Notes: a model not told the origin generated them from the letters alone. Counted from the first letter of the stretch, positions 4,119 to 31,087 are shown. The stretch: DNA of 47,886 nt from a virus (IMGVR_UViG_2563366951_000006), one strand, 5' to 3'. Program-made: numbers and translations.

Positions 4119-4173
4119 TCTTAGAGAGGTATTAGCTCTGAAACAACAAGGTTTTACGTGACTGTGGTCACGA

Positions 4174-4740
4174 CTAGGTAGTTTTATTAGCTGGAAACTT
4201 CTTATAAAGAGTGCATACCGCTACATCATAAATAATTGCCACCTGCTTCCTGTTCATGCCATTCGCAATCAGTCGGCCCGCCTGGTCCCATTGTTCTTGA
4301 GTAAGCTTCGGACGCCTGCCGCCTATCCGCCCTTTCTCCCGAGCTGCAGCCAGGCCTGCCCGGGTGCGCTCAACAATCAACTCTCTTTCCATTTCCGCCA
4401 GTGCTGACATGATGTGAAATATAAAACGCCCCATTGGGCTGGAAGTGTCGATGCTGTCAGTAAGGCTCTTGAAGTGAATGCCACGTTGTCGGAGTTCGTC
4501 CACCAGCAATACCAGGTTCCTCATGCTTCGCCCGAGGCGATCCAGCTTCCAAACAACCAGCGTATCCCCCTCCTTCAGCGTTCGCAGAAGCTTTTTAAGC
4601 GCTGGCCGGTTCGCTACCGTCCCGCTCATTTTTTCCTCAAAAACCTGTTCACATCCTGCGCGTTCGAGAGCTTGCCGCTGAAGATCAGTATTTTGGTCAT
4701 TTGTTGACACCCTTACATAGCCAATTTGCATATTTTTCAC
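4174..4740 (-). CDS. Serine DNA invertase, Gin/Pin/Hin/Cin family
   Basis: MQIGYVRVSTNDQNTDLQRQAL...VWKLDRLGRSM...YDVAVCTLYKK is near-collinear with Mu Gin; catalytic Ser in the VRVSTNDQ motif. Confidence 0.92.
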   Translation of the reverse strand: MKNMQIGYVRVSTNDQNTDLQRQALERAGCEQVFEEKMSGTVANRPALKKLLRTLKEGDTLVVWKLDRLGRSMRNLVLLVDELRQRGIHFKSLTDSIDTSSPMGRFIFHIMSALAEMERELIVERTRAGLAAAREKGRIGGRRPKLTQEQWDQAGRLIANGMNRKQVAIIYDVAVCTLYKKFPANKTT

Positions 4741-4797
4741 CCAATAAATTCTGCAAAAAAATCAGGTGAAGTTATCGGCCAGGCCGCTCAAGAGCAA

Positions 4798-4821
4798 TCT
4801 ATAAAACGTCGGTTTAGGAAG
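4798..4821. other. gix/hix-like recombination site (left boundary of invertible segment)
   Basis: tctataaaacgtcggtttaggaag; inverted copy of the site at 6347..6370; resembles Mu gix TTCCTGTAAACCGAGGTTTTGGATAA. Confidence 0.6.
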
Positions 4822-4861
4822 CAGCGCCACGAAGGACGTCGGAACGGCGGCCGGAAACGTC

Positions 4862-5602
4862 ATGCAAGTGGGAGCATTTGGGCTTGGAACTATCAACGGA
4901 GACGGCCCACTGTTGGACGCTATGGACGCATTTACACCGACCTGTTTCTCCTCCCATCAAAATGACGGGATGACCCAGCTTGGGTTAACTGCAAATACCG
5001 GTATTACGTCTATAGTCGTCAATCGGGGCAGCCGACCAACCCGTATTCATCAGGCCTACATTCTAAGGCGGACGTGGTTTTCGTATTACGGTGGTTCGTC
5101 CTGGTCATATCAGGAGGCTTACACCACGGGCAATACCACAAAGTCCAGCGATGGTACCCTGAAGGCTGCGTCTCCGGTTGCGCGCATAGTGACGAGTCGG
5201 GATGCATGCCAGCGCGCTGACGTAGCCGAAGATGGTTTCTCCTGGTGCGGCTGTGGGACAGCAAACGCAGAGGCGGAGGGCATAACCCTTTCTCGCCTTG
5301 AGGCGGGCGTTTACCTGCTGACAGGTGCAGCAGGACTGGCTTCAGAGGGATGGCAGCTACTGCCACCGATGGACCCTGGTGGAATGGGAGAACTTGGCGT
5401 GGTTGAAGCTGAGCAGACGGAAAGCGGAGGCCTGACAATCCGTCTTTTCAAGCAAAAATACATCCTGAGCGGTGAAGGTGAGATCATTAAAACCAAAGGT
5501 GAACCGATGGACGTGCCGGCGAACAGTTGGATCGATGTTCGCCTGGATATGCCATCTGATTCTCTGTTTAACCAGCGGATGAATCAGGAACTTCAGCCAT
5601 AG
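4862..5602 (+). CDS. Tail-fibre variable C-terminal cassette A (inside invertible segment, currently opposite to the tail operon)
   Basis: Frame is open from the gix site (NVGLGSSATKDVG...); shares motifs with cassette B (SDGTLKAASPV, DMPSDS.FNQR). Confidence 0.55.
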   Translation: MQVGAFGLGTINGDGPLLDAMDAFTPTCFSSHQNDGMTQLGLTANTGITSIVVNRGSRPTRIHQAYILRRTWFSYYGGSSWSYQEAYTTGNTTKSSDGTLKAASPVARIVTSRDACQRADVAEDGFSWCGCGTANAEAEGITLSRLEAGVYLLTGAAGLASEGWQLLPPMDPGGMGELGVVEAEQTESGGLTIRLFKQKYILSGEGEIIKTKGEPMDVPANSWIDVRLDMPSDSLFNQRMNQELQP

Positions 5603-6221
5603 CCTTGCGCTGATTCCAGATACTGTCCTGCGGCATCTGAACACGTACAGAGACAAATTGGTCAGAAGGGATGTCTATCGGCTCGCCATCGCTGACACCC
5701 TGTAGCTCGTTCCTGGCGAACTCTGGTGCTTCAGGATGTGTGCGGTGAAAGGTTTTCACTAACACCGATCCGTCAGCATGAACCTCATAATCCAGCCATA
5801 TCAGAGGCTGCTTGTTGCGGTCGGTGGGAATATCAAAACCGCCATCAATGCCGCCCCAGGCAGCGTCAGAGTTAAGCCCTTCACATCCTTCAATCAGATA
5901 TTCACCGATGGTCAGACGGGTTACGGTGCAGCCTTCAGATTCGTCATTAGTCTGGTATGCGCCATCTGTAAACACTTTGACCACAGGCGATGCTGCTTTA
6001 ATGCTGCCATCTGATGCAACTGTAGTGTTTGCAGTCGTGTATACCTTTTTCCAAGTGTATTGGCCTCCTTGATTGTGAGTAGTCTGAATATATGCTTTTC
6101 CATCATTAGACCAAACGAACCATGAAAAAGATGGGGCACCATCATACTGCAACTGCAGCCCGACTCCTCCACCTCCGGGGGAGTTGATCGTTGATGTTGT
6201 ATACCTACCAAATCCAAGCAC
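5568..6221 (-). CDS. Tail-fibre variable C-terminal cassette B (inside invertible segment, co-directional with the tail operon)
   Basis: GTG start at 6221; same frame stays open upstream through the gix site to 6371 (KVGLGDAATRGV...); homologous to cassette A. Confidence 0.55.
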   Translation of the reverse strand: MLGFGRYTTSTINSPGGGGVGLQLQYDGAPSFSWFVWSNDGKAYIQTTHNQGGQYTWKKVYTTANTTVASDGSIKAASPVVKVFTDGAYQTNDESEGCTVTRLTIGEYLIEGCEGLNSDAAWGGIDGGFDIPTDRNKQPLIWLDYEVHADGSVLVKTFHRTHPEAPEFARNELQGVSDGEPIDIPSDQFVSVRVQMPQDSIWNQRKAMAEVPDSSAG

Positions 6222-6346
6222 ACTCGTATCTGAAAAGTTTTCAATATGTCGCGGATTTCCCAGTCCAATAGCTCCTACAGTAGGGAGAGTATTGTGGCCA
6301 ATGCCCGGAGAGATTTTATCGCTGGTTACTCCCCTTGTGGCCGCAT

Positions 6347-6370
6347 CTCCTAAACCGACCTTTAAAATAT
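6347..6370. other. gix/hix-like recombination site (right boundary of invertible segment)
   Basis: ctcctaaaccgacctttaaaatat; shares cctaaaccgac with the reverse complement of the site at 4798..4821. Confidence 0.6.
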
Positions 6371-6410
6371 TTCACGATCCGATATGCTAGGCCGGTTCCT
6401 CTTCTGCATT

Positions 6411-7547
6411 TCACCCTTTGCTATTGTTTAAATTTTCTCCACTGCTCATTTCGTCGATTTGGAGTTTCAACCCTTTTACAGCAGCAATCAGATAGCCGAT
6501 CAGCCCCATATAATCGGCAACAAGATAATCTGTTGCTTCATCATGAATAACCAGGTCGGGAATCACTAAATCGAGATCTTGCGCAAGCGCGCCAGCGGTT
6601 AATCTCTTTGAATCTGCATTCTTATAGCGGAACGTGTAACCATCAAGCGCGGCTATCTTTTCCAGAGCCTCCGCAGGCTCGATAATGTTCACTTCCTCTT
6701 TCGCGTTCCAGTCTGACGTTAGAGTAACGCCGTTCGCCTGAACTGCACCCTTCGCGTTTATCGTCCCGTTACGAGTGTTTATGAACACCGCAGGTTTCCC
6801 GGCAACCACGCCATTTACTGGCTTGTTGTATGCAGTACAGAAGCCGATTCCGTACCAACTGACAATGTTGATGTTGGACATTGCTTCGAATGAGGCTGTG
6901 TCAGTACCTGCTTCAATAGCCCCGAACCCTCCAATTGCTACCCCGGATGATGTATCACTTGCCGCTGCAGGGATACGGATAGCAGCCGATGCAAACAAAG
7001 ATTCCCCATTCACCATGAATCCACTGACAATGACATTATTTGAATCCTGAGTAGCCAAGCTTCCTAAACCGAGGTTTTTGCGAGCGTCTTCTGCCTTCGT
7101 TGCCCCGGTCCCGCCGTCAGCGATTGCAAGCGCACCATTGCTCCCTTTCTGCGCAAGTTTACCGATGCCTGGGATGGTTACGGCGGTGCCGTTGATGGTA
7201 ACTGTGATGCTTTGGTTTGCTGAGGTGGTGGCGAACGTCTCCCACGCGCCAATATTCTCGTCATATTCTTTGATGAGCTGCGACATTGCCTGGGCCAGTC
7301 CGTCGACGGAGATAATGTCTGACACCAGAATGGCGTATTTCTGGCCGCTCAGCGCCGGAGAAGCTGCAGGCGTAATCGTCATTGACGTGGCGCTATTCAC
7401 GGATGAAATCTGGAACATCTGAACCGGGTTAGACATGACAATAATCGTCTGGCCAGCGCGAACCTGGCTGGCCGGTGCAGTCCAGTTTGTACCGGAGCCG
7501 GTTGCGGTATTTCCGTTAATAGAGATAGTTCCGGTGCTATAAATCAT
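6411..7547 (-). CDS. Tail fibre protein with C-terminal intramolecular chaperone (peptidase S74-like) domain
   Basis: C-terminus SDWNAKEEVNIIEPAEALEKIAALDGYTFRYKN...YMGLIGYLIAAVKGL matches the auto-cleaving chaperone domain of phage fibres; RBS aggag upstream. Confidence 0.8.
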   Translation of the reverse strand: MIYSTGTISINGNTATGSGTNWTAPASQVRAGQTIIVMSNPVQMFQISSVNSATSMTITPAASPALSGQKYAILVSDIISVDGLAQAMSQLIKEYDENIGAWETFATTSANQSITVTINGTAVTIPGIGKLAQKGSNGALAIADGGTGATKAEDARKNLGLGSLATQDSNNVIVSGFMVNGESLFASAAIRIPAAASDTSSGVAIGGFGAIEAGTDTASFEAMSNINIVSWYGIGFCTAYNKPVNGVVAGKPAVFINTRNGTINAKGAVQANGVTLTSDWNAKEEVNIIEPAEALEKIAALDGYTFRYKNADSKRLTAGALAQDLDLVIPDLVIHDEATDYLVADYMGLIGYLIAAVKGLKLQIDEMSSGENLNNSKG

Positions 7548-7624
7548 AACAACTCCTAAATTTAGACAACATGAAGCCCGGAGAGGTATATAACCCTCAC
7601 CAGAAATAATTTCTGAATTGGTTT

Positions 7625-7971
7625 TTAATACATGTTGGGCAACGCCAGTGTTGGCATAGCTATAGTTGTATCAAATGCCATTGACCACCCACCCAAATAA
7701 TAATTGCCGACTACTTTATTCCTTTCTGCTCTGACATTCCCACCTGTCATTACAATTCCTTTATACCTAATATTTCCGTAACCACCAACGTGTCGACAGT
7801 TAGCCCCGGTATAAACAATCTGGCAAAATTCATCACCAATATTCAGGTTCGCATTGGCGATATTTATTGTCCCATCAAAAATGAATGGCTTCGTGCAAGT
7901 AAGAAGACGTTTGCGTTGACGATTGGTTTATTCAATCCATCAACTAAAATACCATGTAAACGAATTGCCAT
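7625..7971 (-). pseudogene. Side-tail-fibre (Stf)-like N-terminal fragment, apparently interrupted
   Basis: ATG at 7971 encodes MAIRLHGILVDGLNKPIVNANVFL, which resembles the lambda Stf N-terminus as I recall it (MAVKISGVLKDGTGKPVQNCTIQL); stop after 35 codons, open frame continues in another phase to 7625. Confidence 0.4.
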
Positions 7972-8052
7972 AACATTTCCCACTTTATTTTACTTACTCA
8001 ACACAACAAGTATATTAAAATTGAACCTTGTCAACAACACAAAGGAGTCCCA

Positions 8053-8283
8053 ATGAAACTCGCTCTAATTATGCTGCCATTATGTCTGTCCCTCACTGCA
8101 TGTGGTAGTGGCCTGAATACCGGTAAACCGAATTCCGGCGTTATCCCAAAACCCTTGGATTGGGATAACGGTTCTTTAATTTATGATACCGAAAAGCTTC
8201 CAATGACTGGGCAATGGTGCCATGAGATTGCTCACGAATACCGAAGAATTGGAAGCCCTTCAAACTGTGTGATTGATTATTGA
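8053..8283 (+). CDS. Small lipoprotein moron, possible Cor-like superinfection-exclusion protein
   Basis: 76 aa; signal peptide with lipobox LTAC; opposite strand to the tail genes, immediately downstream of J. Confidence 0.5.
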   Translation: MKLALIMLPLCLSLTACGSGLNTGKPNSGVIPKPLDWDNGSLIYDTEKLPMTGQWCHEIAHEYRRIGSPSNCVIDY

Positions 8284-8284
8284 A

Positions 8285-8312
8285 AATTAACCCCTCAAAC
8301 GAGGGTTAATTA
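8285..8312. terminator. Hairpin between convergent J and lipoprotein genes
   Basis: attaaccc-ctcaaacga-gggttaat, 8-bp perfect stem. Confidence 0.5.
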
Positions 8313-8316
8313 TTTA

Positions 8317-11300
8317 TTACGACCAACTACCAGTTCCGCGAGTCATTAATATTACAGACGGGCGCAAGTAGCTCCCATAGACGTTCGTATACTCCTCCTC
8401 AACGCTTATTGTTACGCTCGACGCTGTCTTTCCTTTCACTGCTAAAGGTATGGTTACATCCATGCCAGGACCATTAGCAGCTCGCTCAATGCTCCTTGTA
8501 ATTGATGTCCCCCCTATGTTAGCAGTCACAATTATACGACTTGCCTGATTTGATGTATATGCAGTTAAACTATAACTTAATAGCAACACAAAGTCTTTAG
8601 ATAATGCTGAACCGGATGAGTCTTTGAAAGTTTTTGTCCAGGTTCTTGAACTTGTAGTTTGTGTGTTTGGTATTGCAGACTCAGCAATGACACACATATT
8701 CGCAACATCACCCACAAAACTGGTAGCTTCCACATTCCCTTTGAATTTACCGCTTGTTGCTTGGATCTCACCAGTAAAGCTACCGCCACTAGCATATACT
8801 ACACCTCTGACGGTCACATTGTTGAATTCAGCATCTCCAGCTTTATTCAACTTCCAACCAGCAGAACCAGCTGCATAGTTGTTGGACTGGATATAGTTGC
8901 CGATTTTGGCGTTCTCAATGGTGCCGTCCTGGATGAAGCTGGCCCGGATGAATGTCTGCCCGTTCTGGATCACGAACGGCAAAGCTACGCTATTTCCGGC
9001 TGCCGTGGTGACGGCGAAGCGGTCAGCCAGGAAGATAACCTGCGACTGCATCCCGGACGGCGTATTCTCAACGCCGATCCCCATCCCCGCAGCGTAATAC
9101 TGCCCGTTGCTGGAGACACCAACCTTGATGTTGTACATCGCGCTGAGTTCGCCATTAACGTTGGCTATAGCCTGAGCGTTAGTGGTGATGGCGGAGGTAT
9201 GCCCGTTCACGGTCGCCGTGATGCTGTCTATCTGCGTGGCGGTGGCCTGCTGATAGTCGGAGAGCGTCTGATTCAGGCTGTTGATGGATGCCTTGTTGCC
9301 GTTGACATCCGTCTGCAGGCTCAGCAGAGAGCGCGCCGTTGCCTCCTTCTCGTTAACGATTACCTCATCAATACGATCCAGCTGCGCACTGTTACCGGCG
9401 ACCGTCGCGGAAAGCCTTTTGCGTGTGGCCACCTGCGCCAGCCCGTTCTGGATAATGGCAATGGCTGAGTTCTTAACCCCGCCCGTCATGCCGTCCATCG
9501 ACACAGAAATCTCGTCGATCTTCACTTCGGCCTGAGCCAGCCCGTCAGCGTTCTCCAGGATGTCTTTCGCCTGCTGCTCGAGTTCGTCGGCATGGTTTTT
9601 AATTTCGTCAGCCATGCCAGCAATTTTTTCATTGCTGTCCACAGCGTTCTCGATCATGTCTTTGAACGTATCGGAGCCTTTCATGTCCTCCAGGATCACA
9701 TCTGTGATGTCGGAAACATCGATGCTGGCCTGTCCTCGCACCCATTCTGTGTACCCTGATTCGTTGCCGCTGCGGTCCACCAGCTGAGCGCGGTACCAGA
9801 AAATCTGCCCAGCCTTGAGGCCCATCTGCTGATATTTGCGCTGCGGATAAGGCACATCGGCCAGCAGCATCGCATCGTCCTCGGTTCCGGTCAGGCTGTA
9901 CTGAATTTCCGTCTTCAGCGTGTCGTCGGTATTCGCCGGGAATCCCCAGTTCAGCTCGATGCCGAAATCCACATTTTCAGAAGCGATGAAGCCAACCGGC
10001 TTCGGTGGATTGCCCACTTTACCCGTAAGATTTACTTCTGGTGATGTCGCCCACACTGATGAAACGTCGCTGGCGTTCACCGCCCTGACGCGGACCAGAT
10101 AGCGACCCGAGTAGATACCCTGCACTTCAAAGCCGAGAGAAGACGTTCGTGGCACACTAATCCAGTTGCCGCTGTCACGCCGCCATTCCGCCTCGTACGC
10201 AACTGCACCCTGAACAGCATCCCAGGCAACGCGCATGGTGGTAATCGCAATGTTCTGGTTAACCGTAGAGTAACTGTCTACGACGATATTTCCTGGGGGA
10301 GCCTGAACCCCTGGCGGAATGACACTGACTGGCCGCTCGTCCAGTCTTGCGCCGGTATCAACAGCGGAATAGATATCAGGGTTGTAAGTCGTCCCGGTGA
10401 CCTCGAAAGTACCGTCGTTGTTGTCCCGCGTTCCCGTAACACGGAAAAGCGCTATAAACAGATCGTCAGAGTCCACACCCCAGTTACATTCAGCCTCCGG
10501 CGTTTCGCTGTAGGGTGTGGTGACAGTGACTGTGTTTCCGTTAACGGCCTGGACGGTTCTGGCCTGAGCTGTGCCTGACGGAAGATTCAAAAACAGCCTG
10601 TTACCGGCTTTCACATCAGCAGCGCGATCGAGGGTTATGTTGCGGCCGTTAACCGCACTCACCCTGCCGCCGATAGTTCTTCCGGCCAGCTCGTTAGCAG
10701 CCACGCCGATCACCTCACCAACAGGGGGGACGTCCATGCCTGTGCTGAAGGTCACCACCTCGCCGATACCGTTGGTAAGCAGCGCCCAGCGCCCCCGCCG
10801 GTTTGCCTCTGACTGCCTGGTGCAGCCGATCGCAGTCATTTCGAGCTGACGATAATCGAAGCGCATGGCCAGATCGCTATCGTAAACAGGCTCAGGCGTA
10901 TCTTTGTAGTGGTTGGCAGGGTCTGACCAGTTCACCAGCGCGGCAGTGTTTCGGGTGGTTTCACTCGGGTCCGCAAAGGTAAATTTACCCTCAACTACGC
11001 TGGCGTGGTTATAGATATGCCACACATCGCGGGGCATATCAGCCAGGACATACATCTTATTGTCACCCCAGTACGTCATGCCGCGAAATATACCCGCCAG
11101 ATCACGAAGTACGGTCCAGGCGTCATTACGGTCCTGGATATAAACGTTGCAACGAAAACGCGGCTCCGTCCCGCTGCCGCCCTTGCCGTCTGGTACCAGC
11201 TGATCGCAATACTGGGCGATGCGATAAAGTTCCCACTTGTCTATCTGAGTCGCATCGATTCTTTGCCCCAGCCCGAAACGCTCGTTCAGAATGATGTCGT

Positions 11301-30778: not shown

Positions 30779-30853
<75 letters not shown>

Positions 30854-30856
30854 ATA

Positions 30857-30932
<76 letters not shown>

Positions 30933-30934
30933 AG

Positions 30935-31008
30935 TGGTCCGCCACCGGAGCCTCGAACCCCGTACCACAACACCTGGGTTGCCGCTCTTCCCGATGAGCT
31001 AGTGGCGG
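30935..31008 (-). tRNA. tRNA-like gene with non-canonical anticodon arm (anticodon unassigned)
   Basis: Perfect acceptor (CCGCCAC/GTGGCGG), D and T arms; best anticodon-arm fold is GCAAC/GTTGT around a 6-nt loop CCAGGT. Confidence 0.5.
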
Positions 31009-31010
31009 TC

Positions 31011-31087
31011 TGGTGGCCCTTGCTGGACTTGAACCAGCGACCGGGCGATTATGAGTCGCACGCTCTAACCAACTGAGCTAAAGGGCC
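31011..31087 (-). tRNA. tRNA with CAT anticodon, Ile2-like (lysidine) or Met
   Basis: Manual fold: anticodon loop CTCATAA; resembles enterobacterial ileX as I recall it. Confidence 0.75.

Follow-up and report, generated by a model that had tools for sequence, protein, structure and literature searches.

A putative Lpp010-type exclusion lipoprotein and a receptor-binding protein gene remnant between J and the side fibre gene of an HK97-like Escherichia coli prophage

Introduction

Which genes lie between the host-specificity gene J and the functional side fibre gene of a lambdoid prophage, and which of them are still alive? The question is raised by positions 7625-8283 of the viral contig IMGVR_UViG_2563366951_000006, analysed over its whole 47,886 nucleotides (nt) and called the window here. 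The window carries Escherichia coli chromosome, with smpB followed by ssrA (698-1060; 99.9% identical there to strain MS 115-1), and a lambdoid prophage adjoining ssrA. The tail genes are on the minus strand, in the order J, a small plus-strand open reading frame (ORF), the interval that we call the scar, a fibre gene of 378 amino acids (aa), two opposed fibre C-terminal cassettes and a DNA invertase. A sequence-only reading had described a side tail fibre (Stf)-like start at ATG 7971, whose frame stops and continues in another phase, and a small lipoprotein gene diverging from it. It proposed for the former a side fibre gene frameshifted as in laboratory lambda, or an assembly error, and for the latter a Cor-like protein connected with FhuA. 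All the features it described were found again in place; the identities that we assign to them differ.

The J-to-fibre interval consists of one live gene, encoding the lipoprotein, and one dead gene, the scar. In the explanation that we consider likely, a cassette with a LamB-specific J tip and an exclusion lipoprotein replaced an older LptD-type receptor module and left the scar behind.

Results

A chimeric scar downstream of J

The scar (7625-7971) is a chimera of two genes: 28 codons from the start of a lateral fibre gene are followed, in another frame, by the final ~88 codons of the gene for an LptD-type receptor-binding protein (RBP). On the fibre side, the minus-strand frame from ATG 7971 has exactly 35 codons, MAIRLHGILVDGLNKPIVNANVFLLARSHSFLMGQ, and ends at the TAA at 7866-7864. 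Its residues 1-28 were identical (28/28) to the N-terminus of gp70, the lateral tail fibre of phage 9g, and residues 1-30 matched four PHROG tail-fibre families (E 9e-6 to 9e-4). The Pfam phage_tail_N profile (PF08400) was matched at positions 1-30 only, with 13.8 bits, under the cut-off of 26.6 because the matching piece is very short. The likeness to Stf N-termini noticed from the sequence alone is thus not due to chance, and the gene it belongs to is truncated. Neither a complete Stf N-domain (~134 residues) nor a continuous fibre ORF was found, the frame stopping at codon 36 and the homology with gp70 ending at residue 28.

The second reading phase belongs to a different gene. This -1 frame is open from ~7927 to its stop at 7627-7625, and the first DUF6453-type residues (KPF...) begin at 7891. 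It matched Pfam DUF6453 (PF20051) with 78.5 bits (gathering cut-off 25), at profile positions 223-289 of 291 only, and PHROG 1265 at positions 241-332 of 332. It was 49% identical to the C-terminus of gp38 from Salmonella phage SPN3UB, and it aligned to residues 223-321 of chain C in the PDB entry 9RPT (E 1.8e-20), sharing its C-terminal PNMY. Chain C is the RBP of phage Oekolampad/Bas18, bound to the LptDE translocon (bioRxiv 10.1101/2025.07.07.663478). The full-length DUF6453 proteins of SPN3UB (gp38, E 9e-109) and DTL (orf51, E 2e-66) matched the same chain, and SPN3UB has the intact order J, DUF6453 (319 aa) and fibre (378 aa). Compared with the RBP of Oekolampad/Bas18 and with Rtp44, both members of DUF6453, the family of LptD-binding receptor proteins in small siphophages, the window holds only the last ~30%, lacking a start codon, out of frame with the upstream ATG and with neutral-looking variation.

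No ATG, GTG or TTG was found in the DUF6453 frame upstream of ATG 7750, and a full-length protein (~320 aa) is not encoded. The 85-aa "DUF6453 family protein" called by the PGAP annotation in Nissle 1917 starts at an ATT codon, and in strain 730V1 PGAP labels the feature a pseudogene, "missing N-terminus". The stretch 7625-7891 is a pseudogene fragment, not a receptor protein. Searches for its full-length parent gave only truncated copies in 5,426 E. coli genomes (megablast), only the HK97 leader in 50,697 phage records (blastn), and only the 85-aa PGAP product and one 63-aa fragment among 5.8 billion proteins.

In a three-way alignment of the window, Nissle 1917 and 9g, the similarity to the 9g fibre runs from 5' of the ATG to ~7885, the last matching base, and ends abruptly, while the window and Nissle go on together. 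The homology with Seuratvirus spans from ~8925, inside J, through the lipoprotein gene to 7913. Among 5,426 complete E. coli genomes, 37 had the same joint, including Nissle 1917 in many independent assemblies, and 12 IMG/VR contigs had it as well. An exact-match scan of one genome per species (185,579 species) gave no match outside E. coli. Base by base comparison of 16 copies revealed no indels, an identical joint in Nissle 1917 and 15 others, and both frames open across the overlap in every copy. The distinct variants were 13 non-synonymous and 5 synonymous in the DUF6453 frame, several of them radical (G>W, C>Y, R>I, L>W), and 6 non-synonymous and 4 synonymous in the fibre frame. These ratios are the pattern of relaxed constraint, and the variants look neutral.

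Mosaic structure around the scar

The body of J is HK97-like (66% aa identity to HK97 J overall), and its last ~145 codons (8317-8751) are a Seuratvirus-type tip. The last 145 aa were 95.9% identical to J of Bas21, and reached only 25-29% identity with the tips of Nissle, 9g, mEp010 and HK97. Along the DNA, the identity to Nissle was ~100% over the start of the fibre gene with its leader, the scar and the intergenic region (7482-8082), and 85-90% over the lipoprotein gene (8082-8315; synonymous divergence dS 0.59). No nucleotide alignment to Nissle was obtained for the J tip (8316-8695). The J body (8755-9295) was mostly 96-100% identical to Nissle and HK97, with two 60-nt windows at 90-93%. 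HK97 shares no more than the 81-nt fibre leader (7548-7628); both scar and lipoprotein are absent from it. The same scar is present in E. coli 21AR0133, where the homology starts exactly at the fibre ATG and the C-terminal region of J is only 49% identical over ~215 aa. Near-identical scars thus stand beside diverged lipoprotein genes and unalignable or different J tips (Nissle, 21AR0133), which shows cassette exchange across the scar. The pattern agrees with what BASEL described for the Queuovirinae, in which similarity breaks down at the RBP locus and once more just past the extreme 5' end of the first lateral fibre gene (PMC8594841).

Over 8269-8748, comprising J tip and terminator, the nucleotide identity to the virulent Seuratvirus GottfriedDienst (Bas21) was 93-100%, which implies that genes passed recently between virulent Queuovirinae and a temperate prophage of the HK97 type. 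In E. coli 21AR0133 (locus 4163-4441), the lipoprotein is replaced by a 92-aa Gly-rich secreted protein, with a signal of the signal peptidase I type and two C-terminal cysteines. This protein is another candidate accessory or exclusion gene.

Three other accounts of the scar were weighed. Two overlapping open frames that differ by -1, with a T5 homopolymer run in the overlap, speak for a side fibre gene with a single-base frameshift, or for a sequencing or assembly error. In lambda PaPa the side fibre gene downstream of J (stf, orf401/orf314) is likewise non-functional; one base is missing and both halves are Stf. In the window only 28 fibre codons remain and the rest is a different gene, the C-terminal third of DUF6453, with the fibre nucleotide homology ending at ~7885. 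An error is contradicted by the recurrence of the sequence in complete genomes and viral contigs from independent projects, in one of whose copies PGAP itself recognized the missing N-terminus. Given the break of the alignment at the joint and this recurrence, we rejected both explanations offered by the sequence-only reading, which have almost no chance of being right. A programmed -1 frameshift would yield a functional fusion of 28-34 fibre residues and ~88 RBP residues, for example a tail-tip adaptor. The frames open in all 16 copies and a weak A-TTT-TTG motif in the overlap favor it; this motif is not of the X XXY YYZ type, the substitutions in both frames look neutral, and the fusion would be short of ~100 Stf N-domain residues and ~220 RBP residues. 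The search for a stimulatory RNA structure in the downstream 87 nt gave a fold of -16.6 kcal/mol, with a z of -0.24 against shuffles. Without a slippery heptamer or a stable downstream fold, programmed frameshifting was rejected too, as extremely improbable. Finally, the scar could be kept as useful, either as a transcribed leader or regulatory region of the fibre gene, or as a homology "linker" promoting the exchange of receptor cassettes. It is 96-100% conserved while both neighbors vary, it flanks at least three different J-tip/accessory cassettes, and the drop in similarity in the BASEL Queuovirinae lies just after the 5' end of the lateral fibre gene. Recent common descent explains the high identity equally well, the substitutions look neutral and HK97 manages without a scar, so that we regard a selected role as unlikely. 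The reading of the scar as a relic of cassette replacement is the one followed below.

An intact lipoprotein gene related to lpp010

The plus-strand ORF 8053-8283 encodes 76 aa, with the lipobox L14-T15-A16-C17 and glycine as the +2 residue. It diverges from the fibre-like start and converges on the stop of J (8317), with a terminator between them. The small lipoprotein ORF with an LTAC lipobox seen from the sequence alone is therefore real, and so is its Cor-like position: cor in phi80 and T1 likewise lies between J-associated genes and the side fibre. In the alignment of the family 19 columns were invariant, including Cys17, Cys56, Cys72 and the motifs PNSGV, TE, GQWC and NC. The ratio of non-synonymous to synonymous substitution rates (dN/dS) was 0.04-0.15 in comparisons with Nissle, 9g, Bas21 and IMG/VR alleles. 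The gene is intact and under strong purifying selection.

The lipoprotein matched PHROG 12984 (E 1.9e-51), as did Lpp010 of phage mEp010 (E 1e-26). It was 50% identical to Lpp010 (gp116; E 3e-28), 92% identical to the Bas21 and CAjan proteins, 90-92% identical to those of Bas21, Bas23 and Bas24, and 93.5% identical to WP_021567253.1 (locus 6506-6739) from the lambdoid prophage of Nissle 1917. By tblastn, homologues were found in Seuratvirus, Nonagvirus and Dhillonvirus and, at 50% identity, in mEp010, mEp013, mEp044 and mEp554. The family is small, with 28 clusters at 90% identity among 5.8 billion proteins, and four at 50% in a profile search of 1.84 billion representatives; Cor, Llp, Rtp45 or other distant relatives were not retrieved by this search. 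The family is not represented by a model in PADLOC, NCBIfam or Pfam, its profile yielded nothing above noise among PDB sequences, and a literature search found no published account of the Seuratvirus or Nissle lipoprotein itself.

Homologues at 71-73% identity were also detected in stretches without annotated gene, in Shigella phage EP23 (21711-21929) and Escherichia phage PNS1 (9759-9977; Dhillonvirus-like); several phage annotations overlook the gene. A frameshifted allele (74 aa, 29 contigs), present in some E. coli, has lost the conserved C-terminal half after residue ~54; the lipoprotein gene is thus occasionally inactivated.

Lpp010, of "type C", shares with the window protein the PHROG, the lipobox, the size and the motifs PNSGV...DTEKLP.TGQWC...RRIGSPSNCV, and its gene is also convergent on J and divergent from the fibre. 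The layout J, terminator, lipoprotein, fibre is common to mEp010 (gene 116), 9g, Bas21 and Nissle. The differences are that the sequence is half-diverged, that the host here is an HK97-like lambdoid prophage and mEp010 a non-lambdoid temperate phage, and that the J tips are only 25% identical. When expressed from a plasmid, Lpp010 excludes the LamB-dependent phages mEp010, mEp044 and mEp554, and lambda; according to its authors, no lambdoid lipoprotein excluding lambda had been reported (PMC11893012). By homology, the window protein is a lambdoid-prophage addition to the recently described Lpp010-type family of predicted exclusion function, and not a homologue of Cor.

LamB as the predicted target

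The phages Bas21, Bas23 and Bas24 are LamB-dependent (BASEL Table S5), as is mEp010 (PMC11893012). The lipoprotein is linked to such LamB-using phages and tips, the J tip of the window being almost that of Bas21. It also accompanies the divergent J tips of 9g, Nissle and mEp010 (25-29% identity), which fits an action on the receptor rather than on a particular tip. Judged from this linkage and from its homology, the lipoprotein is most likely a superinfection exclusion protein against phages using LamB.

Two other functions come into consideration. In size, lipoprotein signal, two further cysteines and genomic position the protein resembles Cor of phi80 and T1, a type that excludes FhuA-dependent phages. 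Cor (phi80, T1, N15) is a small (~75 aa) lipoprotein encoded beside the J or RBP genes, with an exclusion aimed at the own receptor. The window protein had no match at E<=0.1 to the NCBIfam Cor model NF047972 (cut-off 31 bits) or to PHROG 1119, whereas real Cor proteins were recognized, with 55.8 bits on NF047972 and E 3e-30 on PHROG 1119 for T1 and E 7e-37 for phi80. Alignment with T1 and phi80 Cor (BLASTP, hidden Markov models) found similarity in the signal peptide only. In addition, it is linked to LamB-type J tips and homologous to a protein excluding LamB phages, the target predicted for it being the trimeric porin LamB and not the TonB-dependent transporter FhuA. Neither the Cor-like identity nor the FhuA link suggested earlier was upheld, and we consider a Cor-type function very improbable. 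The other possibility is an exclusion that does not act via LamB, such as a block of DNA entry at periplasmic or inner-membrane steps, or a wholly different moron function. One LamB-dependent phage, mEp013, escapes exclusion by Lpp010 (PMC11893012); on Nissle, which has the 93.5% identical copy, lambda binds LamB and yet does not infect (PMC5987069). Against this, the gene co-travels with J tips that are 25-96% identical, and the tips for which the sources consulted name a receptor all use LamB (those of 9g and Nissle are outside that set). Moreover, the lipoproteins known at this locus, Cor, Llp and Rtp45, all target an outer-membrane receptor. We hold such alternatives to be rather unlikely, less firmly so than for a useful scar, and retain LamB as the predicted target.

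Feature map and neighboring observations

The features of the locus are collected in Table 1. The counterparts of the terminator are the annotated "H1 loop" of phage 9g and the terminator T18 of mEp010. The 378-aa fibre ends in a T4 gp36-like C-terminus with a Peptidase_S74 chaperone domain (Pfam); its identity to the Stf of HK97 and to the fibre of Nissle, 93-94%, is confined to aa 1-162.

Table 1 Features between the fibre and J genes of the prophage, in the order of the tail genes.
Feature	Position	Strand	Evidence
Tail-tip/host-specificity gene J, 1284 aa	8317..12171	-	Pfam Phage_Tail_Tip, FNIII-A_GpJ, Phage-tail_3
Hairpin terminator, bidirectional, between the convergent genes for J and the lipoprotein	8292..8305	.	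Terminator-like sites on both strands
Intact 76-aa lipoprotein gene, predicted LamB-directed superinfection exclusion	8053..8283	+	Lipobox LTAC, PHROG 12984, Lpp010 homology
Ribosome-binding site AAGGAG of the lipoprotein gene	8041-8046	+	3' of the candidate promoter
Candidate sigma-70 promoter of the lipoprotein gene, TTTACT-16-TATATT	7989..8016	+	Consensus scan, 9/12 matches
Lateral (side) tail fibre gene, 5' remnant with 35 codons and stop	7864..7971	-	Fibre-derived part only 7885-7971
Recombination joint between fibre 5' remnant and DUF6453 3' remnant, out of frame by -1	7885..7892	-	Alignments
3' remnant of a DUF6453/LptD-type RBP gene, last ~88 codons and stop, pseudogene	7625..7891	-	Pfam PF20051
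Leader and ribosome-binding-site region of the functional fibre gene	7548..7628	-	100% identity with HK97 over the 81 nt upstream of stf
Functional side fibre gene, 378 aa	6411..7547	-	Pfam matches; HK97 Stf-like N-terminus

Beyond the fibre gene there is a Gin/Pin-type invertible fibre segment (4174-6371), with an invertase (4174-4740), crossover sites at 4796-4819 and 6348-6371, and the cassettes 4862-5602 (plus strand) and 5568-6221 (minus strand). The cassette frame continues the fibre frame and is cut by three stops, and the segment seems uncoupled from the fibre. Past the conserved KNLGLG motif (aa ~162), the fibre gene has instead gained a self-contained C-terminus, T4 gp36-like and with Peptidase_S74. 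The segment may be a shufflon relic. A cluster of four tRNA genes was found by ARAGORN at 30779-31087, with Gly-tcc, Thr-tgt and Met-cat; the fourth has a two-base anticodon and no amino acid assigned.

Discussion

From these data we infer the following history. An ancestral HK97-like prophage would have had a module of J, an LptD-type RBP (DUF6453) and fibre, as in SPN3UB. A block arriving from a Seuratvirus/9g-like source would have brought a J tip of the LamB type, the lipoprotein and the opening 28 codons of a lateral fibre gene. Of the two crossovers, one probably took place inside J, and the other would have joined the block illegitimately to the interior of the RBP gene. In this way the J tip and the greater part of the RBP gene would have been replaced, switching the receptor and leaving a 350-nt fossil. 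The scar presumably has no useful product and would act solely as a spacer or leader sequence upstream of the working fibre gene, and as a conserved border for later exchanges of J-tip/accessory cassettes, with the lipoprotein travelling in a cassette with the LamB-specific J tip. As scars go it is of the ordinary kind, because mosaic joints are the rule in lambdoid tails. Together with the lipoprotein gene, it is a usual outcome of the exchange of host-recognition modules among phages.

A mechanism can be proposed by analogy with two other lipoproteins. The window protein would be exported, lipid-modified and anchored at Cys17. Under the standard Lol rule a glycine at +2 leads to sorting to the outer membrane, and the protein would probably reside in its inner leaflet. 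Among the periplasmic lipoproteins that block phage receptors, Llp binds FhuA on its periplasmic face, and Rtp45 displaces LptD loops from within (bioRxiv 10.1101/2025.07.07.663478). T5 Llp and Rtp Rtp45 are, like the window protein, cognate exclusion lipoproteins encoded beside the receptor-binding function; the sequences are unrelated and the receptor class is another. In a similar way, the lipoprotein would most likely engage the maltoporin LamB from the periplasm and render it unusable for binding by the J tip or for triggering DNA ejection. A lysogen would then no longer be infected by phages with a LamB-using J tip. In the virulent relatives the lipoprotein may also spare the progeny from adsorbing to infected cells or debris.

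Several points weigh against these interpretations. A close full-length DUF6453 parent was not found in the genomes, phage records and proteins searched, and the ancestral arrangement is taken from the SPN3UB relative, which is 49% identical. The lack of stops and indels in 16 scar copies could reflect youth, and some function of the scar could exist. The Lpp010 that was tested is only 50% identical to the window protein, and its failure to exclude mEp013 blurs the rules of specificity. We found no published evidence for binding of Lpp010 to LamB or for the step at which it acts. As lambda binds LamB on Nissle without infecting, the blocked step could follow adsorption. HK97 has a distantly related J tip and no such lipoprotein, thus the linkage is not obligatory. 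The AlphaFold2 model of the lipoprotein (24-sequence alignment) had a pLDDT of 60.7 and a pTM of 0.36 and gave no structural support. Four promoter-like sites were found in the region and 3.4 are expected from shuffled sequence, so that the promoter call is at chance level.

For genome annotation, the results mean that what PGAP calls an 85-aa "DUF6453 family protein", in Nissle 1917 as in other genomes, is a pseudogene fragment, and that the neighboring "hypothetical protein" merits the name Lpp010-type exclusion lipoprotein. For the evolution of tail modules, the locus offers a clean and datable case of what is likely a receptor switch, from LptD-type to LamB-type, by cassette replacement, with the cassette present at 93-100% nucleotide identity in a temperate HK97-like prophage and in virulent Seuratviruses. 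Tentatively, and with a probability that we place somewhat below even, the family may be a narrow LamB-exclusion family, distributed over virulent Queuovirinae, Dhillonvirus, mEpimmI phages and lambdoid prophages, which silences a trimeric porin that is not TonB-dependent from the periplasm, by a mechanism other than that of Llp with FhuA and Rtp45 with LptD. Nissle 1917 is reported to be fully lambda-resistant, with a prophage factor beyond the repressor involved (PMC5987069), and at the same tentative level its copy of the lipoprotein could underlie this resistance. If the prediction of LamB is true, lysogens, among them the probiotic Nissle 1917 and strains engineered from it, would enjoy intrinsic protection against LamB-dependent phages, which would bear on phage therapy cocktails and on the stability of live biotherapeutics. 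The lipoprotein would then be, in addition, a tractable means of studying how phages can be shut out of a porin from within.

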